A stretch of DNA of 64,000 nt from contig CM000155.2 of the NCBI GenBank assembly GCA_000004695.1, forward strand, positions 1,280,001-1,344,000, given 5' to 3'. Numbering within the stretch: the first letter of the stretch is position 1; each line of letters starts with the position of its first letter. Positions 2,462 through 50,184 of this stretch are shown piece by piece. Source of the stretch: Dictyostelium discoideum. Its lineage: Eukaryota. Below the pieces are notes generated by a model that searched no databases, had not been told where the DNA came from, and saw only the letters and a list, made by a program, of their open reading frames with translations. Both the position numbers and the translations under genes were made by a program.

Positions 2462-5630
<3,169 letters not shown>

Positions 5631-5953
5631 ATTATTGGGTTGGGGGAATAAAATTTTTTTTATATTATTATTTTGGGGAAATTTTTAAATTATTTTGATT
5701 ATTACCAATTTGGATTTTTTTTTGGATTTTGGGGGGGTTTTTTTTTTCCCCTTTTAAAAATGGAAAAATTTTTAAATTTTTTTTTCCCCCATTTTTTTTT
5801 TAAAAAAAAAAAAAATTTTTGGAATTTGGTTTTTTTTTTTGGAAAAAAACCCAAAAAGGAAAAAAGGAAAAAAAAAAAAAAAAAAAAGAAAACTGGTTAA
5901 ATTTGTTACTCTTTCTCTTTTTTTTTGAATTTTATTTTTTTTTTTTTGTTTTG

Positions 5954-5990
<37 letters not shown>

Positions 5991-6050
5991 CAATTACGAT
6001 CCAACTTTTATTTTTTTTTTAATCAATCTATACATTGGTTAAATGTTTAG

Positions 6051-6087
<37 letters not shown>

Positions 6088-6152
6088 GAAACAAAAAAAA
6101 TAAAAAAACTAAAAAAAAAATCCAATTCAGGAATGATATATCGAGAATTTTA

Positions 6153-6188
<36 letters not shown>

Positions 6189-6364
6189 TGTGACTTTTTT
6201 TTTTTTTTTTTTTTTATATTATTTTTATAATTATTATTTAAAGTTGATAAAAGAATTTAAAAATTCCTCGTTCTTGTGTTGGAAATAATGGTTAATAAAT
6301 GAATAATAACTTGGTTGATTGTGATGAGTGTGTGTCTTTTAAAAATTATATAAATTGAATTTAT

Positions 6365-6398
<34 letters not shown>

Positions 6399-7236
6399 TT
6401 AAAAAAAAAAAAAAAAAAAGGTGGCCTCGAGCAGAAGCTGCCCCCTTAAAAAAATTTTTAAAAAAAAAAAAAAAAAAATAAAAAAAAAAAAGTAATTATT
6501 TTTGTCATACGATATTGTAAGTTTTTTATTTTATTTAATTTTATTTTATTTTATTTTATTTTATTTTATTTTATTTTATTTTATTTTTTATTTTTTATTG
6601 TTTATTTATTTTTTTTATTTTCTTATTAATTGAATAAGAAAAAAAAAAAAAAAAAGGTTATCAAAAATAATTATCATAGTGGTTTTGTTTTTTTTTTTTT
6701 AAATTTTTTTTTATAAATGGGTTTTTTTTTTGGTTATTTTCACTATTTCCTCACTCCAATCCACACACACACTTTTGATGTGATAAATGGTTTTATTTTT
6801 TATTTTATTTTTTTTGTTGACAACACACAATGATATTATCAAATTTTGTAGGGGGTCCCACTTGTCCTTAAAATCAGTTTTTTTTTTTTTTTTCCTTACT
6901 TTAATTTTTTTCTTTTTTTTTTTTACAAAAATATTATCTTCCCTAATTTGCTTGGGTTTGTGTATGGTCAGAAAATCACTTATCAATATATATATGTGCC
7001 ACTTCATGAAAAATCGTTTTTTTTTTTTTTTTTTTTTCAATTTTAATTTTTTTTTTTTTTTTTAAAAATGTTTTTCTTTCCAATCATTCGCTTTAATTTT
7101 ATAGACAAGAGCATTATTTGAATTCAAAAAGTGTCAACTGAATTTTCGTTCAGAAACTATTTTTTTAAATTAATTAAAAGTATACCAACCTCTCAGCGTC
7201 ATTCATTTTATTATTTATTTTTATTTTTTAAATAAT

Positions 7237-7269
<33 letters not shown>

Positions 7270-8217
7270 ATTTCAAACATTGAGATTTCATTTATAATAA
7301 ATCAAAAAAAAAACTATTTTCATTTATTTATTTTTTTTTTTATTTATTTTTTTTAAAAAAAAAAAAGTATTAAGTTATAAAATAATACATGGCTTTAATG
7401 TATAGGATATTTAAAGATTAGATTTTATTAGGTTTCCATGGAAATATCAGAATTAATGATTTTAAATAAAATAAAATAAAATAAAATAAAATAAAATAAA
7501 ATAAAATAAAATAAAATAAAATAAAATAAAAAAAAAAAAAATAACAAATAATAAATAAAAAGAAAAAGAAAAATAAATAAACAAATATAAAAAATGGTTT
7601 AAATAAATGTAAATTTCTTTTTTTTTTTTTATTTTTTTATTTTATTTTTTATTTATTTATTTTTTTTTTTTTTTTTATATTTATTTTTTTTATTTATTTA
7701 TTTATTTTTTTTTTTTATTATTTCTTCCATAATATCTTGGTATTTAAAGAAATAATGATTCTGCTACCTAAATTTTATAAAATTAAAATAAATTAATAAA
7801 AATTAAAAATAAATATAAATATATAAATTTAGATTAATAATTAAATAAATATAAATAAAATATTAAATAATATTAATGAAAAATTAAACATTAAAAAAAA
7901 AAATTAATTTATATTTATATTTTTTTATTTTTATAATTTTCATTCAGATCTTAATTTATCATTATTATAATAATCAAAGTTTTTTTTTTTTTTTTTTTTT
8001 TGACATTCTACAAGGGTGAGCGAGCGAGATAAAAAAAAAAAAAATAAAAAAAAAAAAATTAAAAAAAAATAAAAAAGTGAATTTGGTGTGTAAGTGTGGA
8101 TAAAAATAGAATATAAATTTGGAAAAAGAGGTAAATCTAAAATTTTCAATTAAATCCAAAATGTCCCAAATTTTGACCCACCCATTAATTATAATAACTT
8201 TTCAATATAAAAATGGG

Positions 8218-8261
<44 letters not shown>

Positions 8262-8436
8262 AAAAAAAATAAAATAATAAAAAATAAAGAAATAAATGAA
8301 TAAATAAATAAATAAAAAAATAAAAATAAAAAAATTTAAAATTTATATGCATCTCATATACATTACCATTACTTATATTTGTGTGTGCTTGTGTGTGTAA
8401 AAATACTATTAGTTTTTTTATTTTTTATAATTTATT

Positions 8437-8477
<41 letters not shown>

Positions 8478-9253: not shown

Positions 9254-13574
<4,321 letters not shown>

Positions 13575-19995: not shown

Positions 19996-20066
19996 GGGGA
20001 GATCCGAGAATCGAACTCAGGACGCTACCACCCAAAGGTAGCATTATACCACTTAACTAATCTCCC
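19996..20066 (-). tRNA. tRNA-Pro (anticodon UGG)
   Basis: Minus strand GGGAGATTAGTTAAGTGGTATAATGCTACCTTTGGGTGGTAGCGTCCTGAGTTCGATTCTCGGATCTCCCC folds as a cloverleaf. Acceptor stem is GGGAGAT/ATCTCCC, anticodon stem CTACC/GGTAG, anticodon loop TTTGGGT and T-loop TTCGATT. Confidence 0.85.
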
Positions 20067-31187: not shown

Positions 31188-40534
<9,347 letters not shown>

Positions 40535-41954: not shown

Positions 41955-41992
41955 GTGATTTATTCGATATCGGATTTAAAAATATTAGTTTG

Positions 41993-42066
41993 TATTCAGA
42001 GCGGGAATCGAACCCACGACCTAATCCGTGTTAAGGATTCGTGATAACCGACTACACCATCCGAAC
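41993..42066 (-). tRNA. tRNA-Val (anticodon AAC)
   Basis: Minus strand GTTCGGATGGTGTAGTCGGTTATCACGAATCCTTAACACGGATTAGGTCGTGGGTTCGATTCCCGCTCTGAATA folds as a cloverleaf. Anticodon stem is AATCC/GGATT, loop TTAACAC, T-arm GTGGG-TTCGATT-CCCGC. The acceptor stem has G-U pairs. Confidence 0.75.
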
Positions 42067-43249: not shown

Positions 43250-44581
43250 ATGATTGAAGATTTTAATGAATTAAGTCCAATCTATCGTGAAAAGTATAGA
43301 TTGACAGTTTTACCAAAATGGAGGAAGAAATTAGTAATTTTAAAAATGATTTTATTAGAAGTTATATTTTTAATTCAAGTTACCTTTAGAACTATAAAAT
43401 CAATTTTATATTATTTCTTCACACACAAGAAAGGATACCTCGTAAAAGATATTAAATATGGTCCAAATGATAGAAATCATTGTGATATTTACATACCTTC
43501 ATCTTCAAATTACCTTTTAAATAATAAAAAAGATTTACCTGTAGTTATATTTATGCATGGTGGAAGTTGGGGTTTGTATGTATATCATTAATTTTAAAAT
43601 AATATTAATCAAGATTTGAAAAAAAAACTAACAAACAAATTTTTTCCCCCACTCTTTTCTGAAAAAAAAAAAAAAAAATAAAAATAAAAATCCAAATCCA
43701 AATCCAAATTCAAATAAATTAGTGGCCATAAATTACAATATATTTTATTAGGTAAAAAATTATCAGAAAGAGGTATTGTTACAATGGTAATAAATTATAG
43801 ATTAACACCAAAAGGTAATATTGATGATATGTTAGAGGATATTGATACTGCAACATCATTTTGTTATGAAAATATTGAAAATTATGGTGGTGATAAAAAT
43901 AAAATCTATTTAATGGGTCATTCAGCAGGTGGTCATATCATTTCACAATATGTTGTTGTCAATTATTCAAAACCAATTGATAATGAACAAAAAAATAAAA
44001 AAAGAGTACCATTATCTGGTATTTTCCCATTATCAGCTCCTTTGCATATTAATGGTAAGTTTTAAAAAAAAAAAAAAATACAACTCTCACTCTCTCACTC
44101 ATTTTTCTAATAAATAATTTATTTTTATATTTATATTAATTTAATAGATCACTTTTTATTTGAAACTAAAAGAGGTGTTGAACATATTTCACCAATGAGA
44201 CCAGCAATGAAAGGACCAAAATATTTTGATGAATATTCACCAAGTGCAGTATTAGAAAAGATTAAAGATAAATCAATAAGAGATGAAAAATTATCAACTC
44301 CATTCCCATCATTTTATATTTTACATGGTGTAGATGATGCAACTGTACCATTATCATCATCAACTAAATTCTTTTCAATATTAATGAGAAAATTAGCAAA
44401 TCCAACTGCAAGAACTTTATTTTTAAAAGCATATCCAAAAATTAAACACATTGATTTTATTTTTAATGTATGTGATGATAATTTAATTATTGAAAGAAAT
44501 ATTTTTAATGGTATAGAAGATGATGATAATAATAATGCTGAATCAATTTTAAATGATATTATTAATATTATAAAATATTAA
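43250..44581 (+). CDS. Alpha/beta hydrolase-fold esterase similar to isoprenylcysteine alpha-carbonyl methylesterase (Abhydrolase_3 type). Exons about 43250..43560, 43753..44050 and 44148..44581.
   Basis: Exon 1 ends ...LPVVIFMHGGSWG (HGG oxyanion motif). The donor is ambiguous: GTTTGT or GTATGT within ggtttgtatgtat. Exon 2 (KKLSERGIVTMVINYRLTP...IYLMGHSAGGHI, GxSxG nucleophile) ends at a GTAAGT donor after HIN. Exon 3 after ttaatag reads (D)HFLFETKRGVEHISP...ILHGVDDATVPLSSSTKFF...YPKIKHIDF, giving the Asp/His of the catalytic triad. The order of conserved blocks matches plant ICME. Confidence 0.6.

Positions 44582-44682: not shown

Positions 44683-44753
<71 letters not shown>
44681..44753 (+). 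repeat. (ATTT)n tetranucleotide microsatellite of about 18 units
   Basis: Seen directly in the 3' flank of the hydrolase gene. Confidence 0.85.
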
Positions 44754-44893: not shown

Positions 44894-45479
44894 TCGAACA
44901 AGATTTTTAATGAAATAATCAAATGTTTATATCAATTATTAATTGTTTTTATTTATTTTTTTTATTTTTTTGTTTTTTTTATTTTTTTTTAATTTTTTTT
45001 AAAAGAGGGGTAATAATTATAACTTTTAAATTTTATTGTTTGATTAACAAATCGTAAAAATGATTTTTTTTTTTTTTTTTATTTTTTTTTTTTCATAAAA
45101 AATTAAAAACAAATTACAAAAAAAAAAAAAATATATCCACATTATCGGTTAATATCGAGTTATTTAAAAGAACAATTGTTTACAACCCTTTACTTTTTTA
45201 TTATTAATTTTATGTATATAAATTTATAAAGGTATTATTAAATTTTTATTTTCAAATCTACACATACATTATATCAAAATTACCATTTTATTTATTAAAA
45301 AAATAAATATTAACAAATAATTAAAAAAAAAATAAAAAATAATAAAAAAAAAATAATAATTAATTATAAAAATAAATTAAAAACACACTATTTAAAATCC
45401 AAATATAAATTTTTTTTATTTTTGATCATTAAAAAAAAAAAATAATAATTTTTTACAATAATATAGTAAAATTAAAAAA

Positions 45480-45845
45480 ATGATGAAAAATTTACTTTTT
45501 TTAGCTTTATGCTTTGCTTTATTGTCAGTTTCAATTTGTGATATTTCAATATCAATTTCACAAATTCAAACTGGTTCCTGGGACAGTCACTCTGCATGGG
45601 AAGTGACATTAATAAATACCGGAACAAGACCAATAATTGATGCAACACTTGTAGCTGAATCAAATTTAATTCTTGATAAACCAGAAAATATTTGGTCAAT
45701 GGAATTAATTTCACCAAATAAATATCATTTCCCATCATGGATAACCCAAAATGGTGGTCTTAATAGTGGAGCAAAGCACACCTTTGGTTATATTAATAAT
45801 AGTGGCGCACCAGCTGCATTCTCAGTTTGCGATGTTAGAAATTAA
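45480..45845 (+). CDS. Small secreted protein, paralog 1 of a tandem four-gene family
   Basis: 121 aa, single exon. N-terminal signal peptide MMKNLLFLALCFALLSVSIC. Conserved blocks shared by all four copies are SxWDxHSxWEV, KYHFPSW and TFGYIN. Confidence 0.65.
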   Translation: MMKNLLFLALCFALLSVSICDISISISQIQTGSWDSHSAWEVTLINTGTRPIIDATLVAESNLILDKPENIWSMELISPNKYHFPSWITQNGGLNSGAKHTFGYINNSGAPAAFSVCDVRN

Positions 45846-46473
45846 TTAATTCAATTGACATTTTTAAAAAATTAAATTATAAAATAAAAGTTGTAAAAAA
45901 AAAAAAAATAATAAAAAAAAATAAAAGGATTAAATTAATAAATTAAAAAAGAAAATGTTTCCGAAATTTATTTATTCTAAACTTCATTTAAATAAGAGTG
46001 TAGTTGTGGTGATTGATTGAGAACAATCTCTTTTTCTATTTTCAATTCTTTTTAAACATTTTTTGTTTGATATCTAAAAACAAGGCTATATTGTATATTG
46101 AATATATATATAATGTATAATAATATTCAATATACAAAATTTGTATTTTGGTTGGTATTTTAATTGTAAATAAAATAATTTATTTTCATTATTTTCAAAC
46201 TTTACTATTTAAATATGAAAATTTGTTTTTACTAGTATTTTTATAAATCCATCTGATTTTTGTAATAAAATTAAGATAGTTATTGGCATAAAAATAGTTT
46301 ATATAAACTATAATCAGAAATAATACCTTTTTTTCATTTTTTTTTAATATTTTATTTATTTAAATATTTAAAAAAAAAAAAAGTTTATTTAAATAAAAAA
46401 AAACAAAATCATTTTATTTAAAATCATATCTTAGTTTATTTTAAATAAAAAAAATAAAAAAAAACTAAAAAAA

Positions 46474-46839
46474 ATGTTTAAAAAAATTCTCTTTTTAATT
46501 TTAAGTTTTGCTATTTTTTCTTTTGCTTTTGGAGATAACAGTTTAACCTTTACTCAAACAAAGGTTAAGGAATGGGATAACGGGAACCATGTTCAATGGG
46601 AAGTTGTACTGGTAAACACTGATCCTTCAAAAAGATCAATTACCGATGCATTCATAATTGGAAATGAAAATTTTAAACCAGAATCTATATGGTCCTTAGA
46701 AACTACACAAGATAATAAATATCATCTCCCATCATATATAAATCGATATGGTTTAAAATTTGGAAGTAACCTCACATTTGGATTCATTAACACCATTAAT
46801 TCTCAAGTTACATTTACAGTATCAGATATTAAATTTTGA
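46474..46839 (+). CDS. Small secreted protein, paralog 2
   Basis: 121 aa, signal peptide MFKKILFLILSFAIFSFAFG. Contains WDNGNHVQWEVVLVNT, KYHLPSY and TFGFIN. It is the most divergent copy. Confidence 0.65.
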   Translation: MFKKILFLILSFAIFSFAFGDNSLTFTQTKVKEWDNGNHVQWEVVLVNTDPSKRSITDAFIIGNENFKPESIWSLETTQDNKYHLPSYINRYGLKFGSNLTFGFINTINSQVTFTVSDIKF

Positions 46840-47482
46840 AAAAATAAAAAAAATTAAAATAAAATAAAATTATTTTTAGAAATCATTTAATATTATAAAA
46901 TTAAACAAAAATGTTACTTTAATAAATTTTTTATAAATGTTTTGAATTAAATTTAAATAATTTTCAATGATAAAATTTATAATAAAAAAAAATATAATAA
47001 AAATATATAATATAAATATATATATTTATATAAAGGGGGTAATAAATTAAGTGTGGGGGTGCAGTAAAGAATTTTTTTATTTCATAATATATTTTTTAAT
47101 TCAAACCCCAATTATAAAAATGATTTTAAACGGTTTTAATATTTGTATATGTAATTAAAATTACAATATTACATAAAGATTTTTTGGTCTATTTATATAA
47201 TTGTAAAAATAAACATTAATCACCACATTTTCCATTTATATTCTTAAGGTTAATTATATTATTTCTTTTAAAAAATTTATTTAAAATTATTTTATTACCT
47301 AAATATAAAAATAGCCATCAAATTATTTTATATTTAATAATTTTACTTTTTAAAAAAAAAAATAATAATAATAAAAAAAAATTATTTAAACATTTTAATT
47401 TTAAATTTTTTTTATTAATTTAAAATAATAATTTCATTTAATAATAATATCAAAAAAAACTATAATAATAATATCAGGAAAA

Positions 47483-47851
47483 ATGTTTAAAAAATTACTT
47501 TTATTTACATTAACATTTGCTATTTTTGCTTTGGCAATTTGTGATAATACATTATCAATTTCTCAATTTCAAAAAAGTGCTTGGGATGGTCACTCTGGAT
47601 GGGAAGTCACAATTTTGAACACTGATTGTTGTAACACTGTTTTTGATGCAACAATTATCCCAGAATCCAACTTTTTCCCTGAAACCATCTGGTCAATTGA
47701 ATTATTATCAGAAAATAAATATCATTTCCCAGATTTCCTTACAAAAACTGGATTAGGAATAGGAAAAAATTTTACCTTTGGTTACATTAACAAAAGTGGT
47801 ACACCTGCTATATTTAATTTTATGGATGTTAAATTCCAATCAAATAATTAA
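47483..47851 (+). CDS. Small secreted protein, paralog 3
   Basis: 122 aa, signal peptide MFKKLLLFTLTFAIFALAIC. Contains AWDGHSGWEVTILNT, KYHFPDF and TFGYINKSG. Confidence 0.65.
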   Translation: MFKKLLLFTLTFAIFALAICDNTLSISQFQKSAWDGHSGWEVTILNTDCCNTVFDATIIPESNFFPETIWSIELLSENKYHFPDFLTKTGLGIGKNFTFGYINKSGTPAIFNFMDVKFQSNN

Positions 47852-48403
47852 AAAAAATAAATAAAAAAATGAAAAAATAAATAAATAAAAAAAATTGTTA
47901 TACCCCTAATCATTTTTTTAAAAATTATATGATTATTATTATTTTATTTTTATTTTTTTTAAATTTTTTTTTTTTTTTAAATTGGTACGATTTCATCTTT
48001 TGGAAAATTATTATTTTTTATTATTATTTTTTTTTTTTTTTAAGATTTTATTTTTCAAATAAATCTAAACCAATTTACAATTAAAGTTTACAATATTGTT
48101 ATTTTTTAATTTTAATTTTTATACATCATATAAAAATTAAAAAACACACAAAAAGCGTTTATACTAAACTGATACAATATTGGTTTTCTACTAATATAAA
48201 TAAATGAAAATACAATTTTTTTATCAATTATTTTTTTTATTTATTTTTTTTAAAAAAAATAAATAATAAAAAAAAAAAAACCTATTTAAAGAAAAAATTA
48301 AAAAAGATATTAATCATTAAAAAACAAATAAAAAAACAACAACTAATCAAATAAAATTAAAAAAACTATAATTATTAATTTAAAAAAAATAATAAAAAAA
48401 AAA

Positions 48404-48772
48404 ATGTTTAAAAAATTACTTTTCTTTACTTTAACTTTTGCTCTCTTTGCTTTAGCAATTTGTGATAATTCAATTAAAATCACTCAAACATTAAGTAGTG
48501 CTTGGGAAGGACATTCAACATGGAATGTAGTAATAGAAAACATTGGAGATAAACCTATCTTTGGTGCTACCATCGTTGCCGAATCTGGTTTAAGCCTCGA
48601 AAGACCAGATAATCTTTGGTCATTAGATTCATTAGGTAATAATAGATTTGGTCTCCCATCTTGGATTACTCAAAATGGTGGTCTTAAAGCTTTCAATGGT
48701 ACTCATACATTTGGTTACACTAATGCTCAACCAACTTCAGCAGTATTCTCAGCCACTGATATTAGATATTAA
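48404..48772 (+). CDS. Small secreted protein, paralog 4
   Basis: 122 aa, signal peptide MFKKLLFFTLTFALFALAIC. Contains AWEGHSTWNVVIEN, LPSWITQNGGL (shared with paralog 1) and HTFGYTN. Confidence 0.65.
   Translation: MFKKLLFFTLTFALFALAICDNSIKITQTLSSAWEGHSTWNVVIENIGDKPIFGATIVAESGLSLERPDNLWSLDSLGNNRFGLPSWITQNGGLKAFNGTHTFGYTNAQPTSAVFSATDIRY

Positions 48773-48995: not shown

Positions 48996-50184
<1,189 letters not shown>

Follow-up and report, generated by a model that had tools for sequence, protein, structure and literature searches.

A stretch of 64,000 nucleotides (nt) of the Dictyostelium discoideum genome (GenBank assembly GCA_000004695.1, contig CM000155.2, positions 1,280,001 to 1,344,000 of the forward strand; the window) carries a tandem array of four paralogous genes, numbered here 1 to 4. 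The array is the already known and annotated ecmG-to-st15 cluster of D. discoideum AX4. Each gene encodes a predicted signal peptide followed by a lone carbohydrate-binding module of family 49 (CBM49), and the products are very probably cellulose-binding matrix proteins of stalk and fruiting body that dock on cellulose microfibrils. Since the array genes were already annotated D. discoideum genes, the finding is correct and ordinary. Added here are the history of the array, which is a single copy in D. purpureum and comprises four ordered orthogroups across the D. discoideum clade, the purifying selection on all four copies, and an apparently ancestral disulfide that was lost in some copies and kept in others.

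Domain assignment and secretion signals

The Pfam CBM49 profile (PF09478) matched all four proteins at 68.6, 55.2, 48.2, and 40.0 bits (genes 1 to 4) against a gathering cutoff of 23.4 bits, and in each case the match spanned positions 1-79 or 2-79 of the 80-position profile. Each protein contained a single CBM49 stretch without a spacer, and Pfam found only CBM49. The initial annotation, made from the DNA letters without database searches, had offered a CBM49-like cellulose binder as a guess and had proposed a profile search, structure prediction, and developmental expression as checks. CBM49 family membership of all four proteins is supported by the strong Pfam match, the CBM2-like predicted fold, and the aromatic triad, and the guess was borne out by the first two together with the public annotation.

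The Pfam profile CBM_2 (PF00553) was unmatched by all four proteins at E <= 1. The array proteins are related to CBM2 and work like CBM2, but they are not CBM2 members by sequence. In the distant homolog P0046, the same stretch (residues 179-267) scored with the Pfam profile of CBM49 as well as with that of CBM_2, and such dual scoring in some distant relatives appears to be a sequence-level bridge between the two families.

All four N-termini had a basic MFKK start and a 12-residue hydrophobic core with a mean Kyte-Doolittle hydropathy of 2.4 to 2.8, compared with at most 1.5 elsewhere in the array proteins. Small residues occupied positions -3/-1 near residues 16-20 in the patterns A-x-A or A-x-C/G (e.g., ALA|ICD). 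The signal-peptide call was a heuristic on the make-up of the n-, h-, and c-regions, and in the AlphaFold models of genes 1 and 2 residues 2-18 formed a helix apart from the domain. These features support all four as secreted proteins that bear a predicted signal peptide, in agreement with the extracellular location first proposed.

Gene array and annotation

All four genes were intronless and open from ATG to stop without interruption in the open reading frame (ORF) listing of the window (Table 1), with start-to-start distances of 994, 1,009, and 921 bp for genes 1-2, 2-3, and 3-4. The initial description of four single-exon genes on the same strand, about 1 kb apart and each encoding about 121 amino acids (aa), was matched at exact coordinates by ORFs of 121, 121, 122, and 122 aa. 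In tblastn comparisons within the window, array members matched each other with E values of 1e-16 to 4e-38, so the similarity of the paralogs is far above chance and the tandem array stands as described; no fifth copy was found by tblastn in the 64 kb. Pairwise identity among the four proteins was 34-53%, gene 2 being the most divergent copy (34-45% identity to the other three), and 27 columns of the four-protein alignment were invariant. The shared blocks recognized earlier, SAWDGHSxWEV, KYHFPSW, and TFGYIN, are real: gene 3 has SAWDGHSGWEV exactly, gene 1 has KYHFPSW, and genes 1 and 3 have TFGYIN, the remaining genes carrying close variants of each block.

An exact-sequence look-up found all four proteins identical to D. 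discoideum AX4 entries, each annotated as 'cellulose-binding domain-containing protein'. The supplement of a 2026 life-cycle proteome (PMC12821622) gives the name ecmG and DDB_G0292224 for Q54DJ4, and st15 and DDB_G0292218 for Q54DJ1 (EAL61319). Gene 2 is presumably DDB_G0292222 and gene 3 DDB_G0292220, as judged from the numbering of the identifiers only. The initial annotation was unaware that the genes are named and annotated and that st15 is cited as biochemically characterized.

Table 1. Features of the ecmG-st15 array and its two boundary genes; nucleotide positions are those of the window
Feature	Position (nt)	Strand	Length or residues	Identifier, match, or remark
Gene 1, ecmG	45480-45845	+	121 aa	DDB_G0292224, Q54DJ4, XP_629733
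Gene 1, predicted signal peptide		+	about residues 1-18/20	
Gene 1, CBM49	45549-45797	+	24-106	E 5.8e-19, profile positions 1-79/80
Gene 1, aromatic triad			W34/W72/W87	
Gene 1, first cysteine	45537-45539		Cys20	
Gene 1, second cysteine	45828-45830		Cys117	
Gene 2, unnamed	46474-46839	+	121 aa	Q54DJ3, XP_629734
Gene 2, CBM49	46546-46791	+	25-106	E 8.7e-15
Gene 2, aromatic triad			W34/W73/Y88	
Gene 2, cysteines			none	
Gene 3, unnamed	47483-47851	+	122 aa	Q54DJ2, XP_629735
Gene 3, CBM49	47555-47791	+	25-103	E 1.4e-12
Gene 3, aromatic triad			W34/W70/F85	
Gene 3, cysteines			20, 49, 50	
Gene 4, st15	48404-48772	+	122 aa	DDB_G0292218, Q54DJ1, EAL61319
Gene 4, CBM49	48473-48724	+	24-107	E 5e-10
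Gene 4, aromatic triad			W34/W72/W87	
Gene 4, cysteines			Cys20 only	Residue 117 is Thr in D. discoideum
BD-FAE esterase gene, 3' exons	43784-44581	+		DDB_G0292226; Pfam BD-FAE, E 1.6e-13; upstream boundary marker, outside the family
Brix-domain gene, exon	48996-49745	-		Pfam Brix, E 8.3e-41; downstream boundary marker, convergent with the array, outside the family

The GC content was 28-34% in the coding regions compared with 10-13% in the spacers, within a window that is very AT-rich (14-32% GC in 2-kb segments), as expected for a dictyostelid. The spacers between array genes had only A/T low-complexity runs in common, so the duplications are old; neither a common regulatory motif nor any remnant of the unit first duplicated was seen in them. 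Positions 44683-44751, in the spacer that separates gene 1 from the BD-FAE gene, hold a (TTTA)n microsatellite with about 17 repeat units. An 88-aa antisense ORF inside gene 1 (45472-45738, minus strand) was rejected, as nothing supports it, and probably arises from the base composition.

Predicted structure, binding face, and cysteines

The AlphaFold models of gene 1 (from an alignment of 15 sequences) and of gene 2 reached mean predicted local distance difference test (pLDDT) values of 88.2 and 86.0, respectively, and both were all-beta after the signal helix. The best PDB match of the gene 1 model was the CBM2 of C. cellulovorans EngD (3ndy_E, E 2.9e-5), followed by the CBM2a of C. fimi Cex (6qfs and 1exg, E 1.9e-4 to 6e-4); a CBM2 from S. 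coelicolor that binds chitin (2rtt) was also among the matches. The gene 2 model gave the same top CBM2 matches at E 2e-3 to 5e-3, with 2rtt at the top. Target-normalized template-modeling scores (TM-scores) of the CBM2 matches were 0.53-0.67 for the two models, and the predicted fold is a CBM2-like beta-sandwich (jelly-roll).

Global alignment of mature EcmG with CBM2a, for which a reference sequence identical to 1exg_A was used, scored z = 4.3 against shuffles. It paired W34, W72, and W87 of EcmG with W17, W54, and W72 of CBM2a, FGY with FGF, and Cys20/Cys117 with the CBM2a disulfide Cys8-Cys107. A linear aromatic array has been described in DDB_G0292224 (PMC11423589). Across the four genes, two columns of the triad were invariant Trp and the third was W, Y, F, and W. 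Conserved aromatic residues had been noted at first as compatible with a carbohydrate-binding module, and the alignment of the EcmG triad with the CBM2a binding tryptophans fits this; the shared blocks thus include cellulose-binding residues. A sequence profile search of the PDB returned no solved CBM49 (best E 0.14, nothing significant).

The CBM2a-type cysteine pair was kept in the ecmG orthogroup and was absent from the gene 2 and gene 3 orthogroups. The st15 orthogroup keeps the pair except in D. discoideum itself, where Thr117 leaves Cys20 unpaired; this cysteine might form a covalent link to other matrix proteins. The extra Cys-Cys of gene 3 at residues 49-50 was also present in D. dimigraforme and not in D. 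firmibasis.

The third triad position and the cysteines bear on a different reading, in which cellulose would not be the ligand of some paralogs, mainly genes 2 and 3; another beta-glycan, a matrix glycoprotein, or a microbial polysaccharide could take its place, and the array would have diversified in specificity and not only in timing. The change through W, Y, F, and W at the third position, the lack of the CBM2-type disulfide in orthogroups 2 and 3, the chitin-binding module heading the gene 2 matches, the ratio of nonsynonymous to synonymous substitution rates (dN/dS) of 0.37-0.66 between paralogs, and the binding of chitin, too, by the related Acanthamoeba Luke CBM49 lectins (PMC6541295) all point in this direction. 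However, W, Y, and F replace one another conservatively in sugar-ring stacking and all three are used in CBM2 and CBM49 members, chitin is not present in D. discoideum walls (PMC6541295), and the four proteins score well on one CBM49 profile and are under purifying selection. A non-cellulose ligand is therefore considered unlikely, and binding of cellulose is preferred for the whole array.

Evolution of the array

In four species the same BD-FAE and Brix genes flank the CBM49 locus; D. purpureum carries a single copy at this syntenic position, and D. discoideum, D. dimigraforme, and D. firmibasis carry four each. The ORFs of D. dimigraforme and D. firmibasis had their best matches to window genes 1 to 4 in the same order, and four orthogroups were recovered in a neighbor-joining tree with bootstrap values of 94-100% (94% for the gene 3 orthogroup). 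The four-gene array predates the split of D. discoideum and D. firmibasis, and its simplest origin is tandem duplication within a single syntenic locus once the lineage had separated from that of D. purpureum. The lineage-specific expansion proposed at the outset is in line with the one copy of D. purpureum against four in the D. discoideum clade. Bipartition support was 62.7% for the 12 genes together with the D. purpureum copy and 17.7% for the 12 as a monophyletic group; that D. purpureum lost copies, instead of duplication having come later, would strictly still be compatible with the sequences.

Ortholog dN/dS was 0.20-0.51 over all four genes (0.23-0.28 for gene 2 and 0.26-0.29 for gene 3), which argues that all four copies are maintained by purifying selection. 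None of the 12 copies from D. discoideum, D. dimigraforme, and D. firmibasis had an intron. The syntenic CBM49 gene of D. purpureum (GL871192.1, locus positions 8001-8450) has an intron (about 80 nt) that follows roughly codon 30. In D. firmibasis (CM069765.1, locus positions 5249-6475), the public annotation gives one 236-aa CBM49 product, and two separate ORFs, both intact, lie in the same stretch at 5249-5614 (121 aa) and at 6098-6475 (125 aa); the 236-aa product looks like a merged gene model of the gene 1 and gene 2 orthologs.

A word-indexed homolog search returned only close group 4 Dictyostelium relatives, so an exhaustive hidden Markov model search was needed for distant homologs, and it gave 66 representatives at E <= 0.001. 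Small homologs with a signal peptide and one CBM49 were found in D. discoideum (Q86KB6), D. purpureum, and D. firmibasis, and also in Tieghemostelium, Polysphondylium, Synstelium, and Acytostelium. In longer relatives, CBM49 was joined to GH5 cellulases or reprolysin-like metalloproteases, and a papain-family protease had two CBM49 stretches matched.

Expression and proposed function

In PMC12821622, st15 is counted among the proteins directly shown to bind cellulose; the primary St15 reference is Wang et al. 2001 (Eur J Biochem 268:4334), as cited in PMC12821622, PMC6541295, and PMC11423589, and PMC6541295 cites it for cellulose binding. The gene 1 product XP_629733 has been given as an example of a Dictyostelium single-CBM49 cellulose-binding protein, a type of which D. 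discoideum has dozens (PMC6541295). Developmental expression was available for two of the four proteins: in the raw mass-spectrometry data of PMC12821622, St15 was detected at culmination in 2/2 replicates and in fruiting bodies in 1 replicate, and EcmG was detected in fruiting bodies only, in 2/2 replicates, neither protein appearing at other stages. CBM49 proteins were especially numerous among the exported proteins of late development in that proteome, with 12 and 18 in two clusters.

In the proposed mechanism, mature proteins of about 100 residues would be secreted late in development, at culmination, and would dock flat on the hydrophobic face of crystalline cellulose microfibrils, by analogy with type A CBM2a modules. 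The contact surface would be a planar strip of three aromatic residues, W34, W72, and W/Y/F87. Since they have no catalytic or cross-linking domain, the proteins probably coat the microfibrils, with the stalk tube, the stalk cell walls, or the sheath as the probable sites. Such a coating would change the association of fibrils with other fibrils and with other matrix proteins. This task is probably divided among the array members by timing or cell type; St15 is detected at culmination, EcmG once the fruiting body is mature.

Stand-alone type A CBMs perturb cellulose surfaces, and this would suit an active, non-hydrolytic loosening of cellulose in the manner of expansins or swollenins in place of a passive coat. 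Expansin-like proteins also occur in the same late-development proteome clusters (PMC12821622). The array proteins, however, are without a DPBB/expansin domain, Pfam finding only CBM49, and nothing was found that points to loosening activity, which makes an expansin-like action very improbable beside the coating of microfibrils.

Several points weigh against cellulose docking by the whole array. When genes 2 and 3 were aligned globally to CBM2a, the scores were on a level with those of shuffled sequences (z 0.6 and 0.8), so the triad assignment in these two genes rests on the family alignment. Comparison of the family alignment with the single CBM2a sequence by hhalign was not significant (E = 0.23), aligning 24 columns only, with W34 paired with W17. 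Cellulose binding of St15 is known here second-hand, through citing papers, and cellulose-binding data for genes 1 to 3 were not found in the literature searched. Genes 2 and 3 were not found among the listed rows of the PMC12821622 proteome tables, and their identifiers are absent from the supplements of a cell-type RNA-seq paper (PMC6198379), which contain none of the four. The microfibril-coating role itself is one that we infer from domain architecture.

The missing proteome rows, the lack of names for genes 2 and 3, and the divergence of gene 2 (34-45% identity) could also be taken to mean that these two are redundant or decaying duplicates without a function of their own, ecmG and st15 being the only copies that matter. 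Both genes are nevertheless intact in D. discoideum, D. dimigraforme, and D. firmibasis as one-to-one orthologs with bootstrap values of 94-100%, their dN/dS is 0.23-0.29, both lie far over the CBM49 cutoff, and the gene 2 model has a pLDDT of 86; absence from the listed proteome rows carries little weight. Redundancy or decay of genes 2 and 3 is accordingly hardly credible. A pseudogene reading of array copies was likewise rejected.

With four maintained, cellulose-docking copies as the preferred reading, the copies may have specialized after the duplications in the D. discoideum clade and not be interchangeable coats. St15 and EcmG keep the W/W/W face, and the middle genes, with Tyr or Phe and the disulfide lost, may recognize another surface or allomorph of cellulose, or a partner that is not cellulose; we regard such specialization as rather improbable. 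The result matters little beyond confirming the annotation, as the cellulose of stalk, sheath, and spore coat and the dozens of secreted CBM49 proteins were already known. The array history, the selection, and the disulfide loss could guide the question of what bare CBMs contribute to a cellulose matrix.

Comparison with known systems

Genes 4 and 1 have the same sequences as St15 and EcmG and are the same genes, with genes 2 and 3 as unnamed neighbors carrying a domain annotation only. The sheathins EcmC, EcmD, and EcmE as well as StaB, CelB, and SP85 are likewise secreted, developmentally regulated, and CBM49-bearing, and they co-localize with the cellulose of sheath, stalk, or spore coat. 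Each array protein, for its part, amounts essentially to a bare CBM49 of about 100 residues and carries no further part.

In the Luke lectins of the Acanthamoeba castellanii cyst wall, the spacing of the Luke-2 triad W35/W73/W88 equals that of W34/W72/W87 in EcmG, and Ala mutations of the Luke-2 triad abolish cellulose binding. A Foldseek match to DDB_G0292224 with a root-mean-square deviation (RMSD) of 1.79 and 30.3% identity was reported in the Luke lectin study (PMC11423589). Luke lectins carry two or three CBM49 with Ser-rich spacers, whereas the array proteins are single-domain and not of the Luke type.

The CBM49 of tomato SlCel9C1, the family founder (Urbanowicz et al. 2007), belongs to the same Pfam/CAZy family as the array proteins and binds crystalline cellulose via conserved aromatic residues. 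The plant CBM49 is a C-terminal appendage of a GH9 endoglucanase, whereas the array CBM49 stands alone without an enzyme. Among the best structural matches (C. fimi Cex CBM2a, 1EXG/1EXH; 3NDY chain E; 2RTT), the triad and the disulfide linking the termini align with EcmG, and CBM2a modules show type A binding through a flat surface. These CBM2 modules are bacterial and enzyme-attached, without a significant sequence match to the array proteins.

Other features of the window

Elsewhere in the window, ARAGORN predicted two tRNA genes on the minus strand, tRNA-Pro(TGG) at 19996-20066 and tRNA-Val(AAC) at 41992-42066. Two very long ORFs were present on the plus strand, at 32498-40534 (2,678 aa) and 9702-13574 (1,290 aa).

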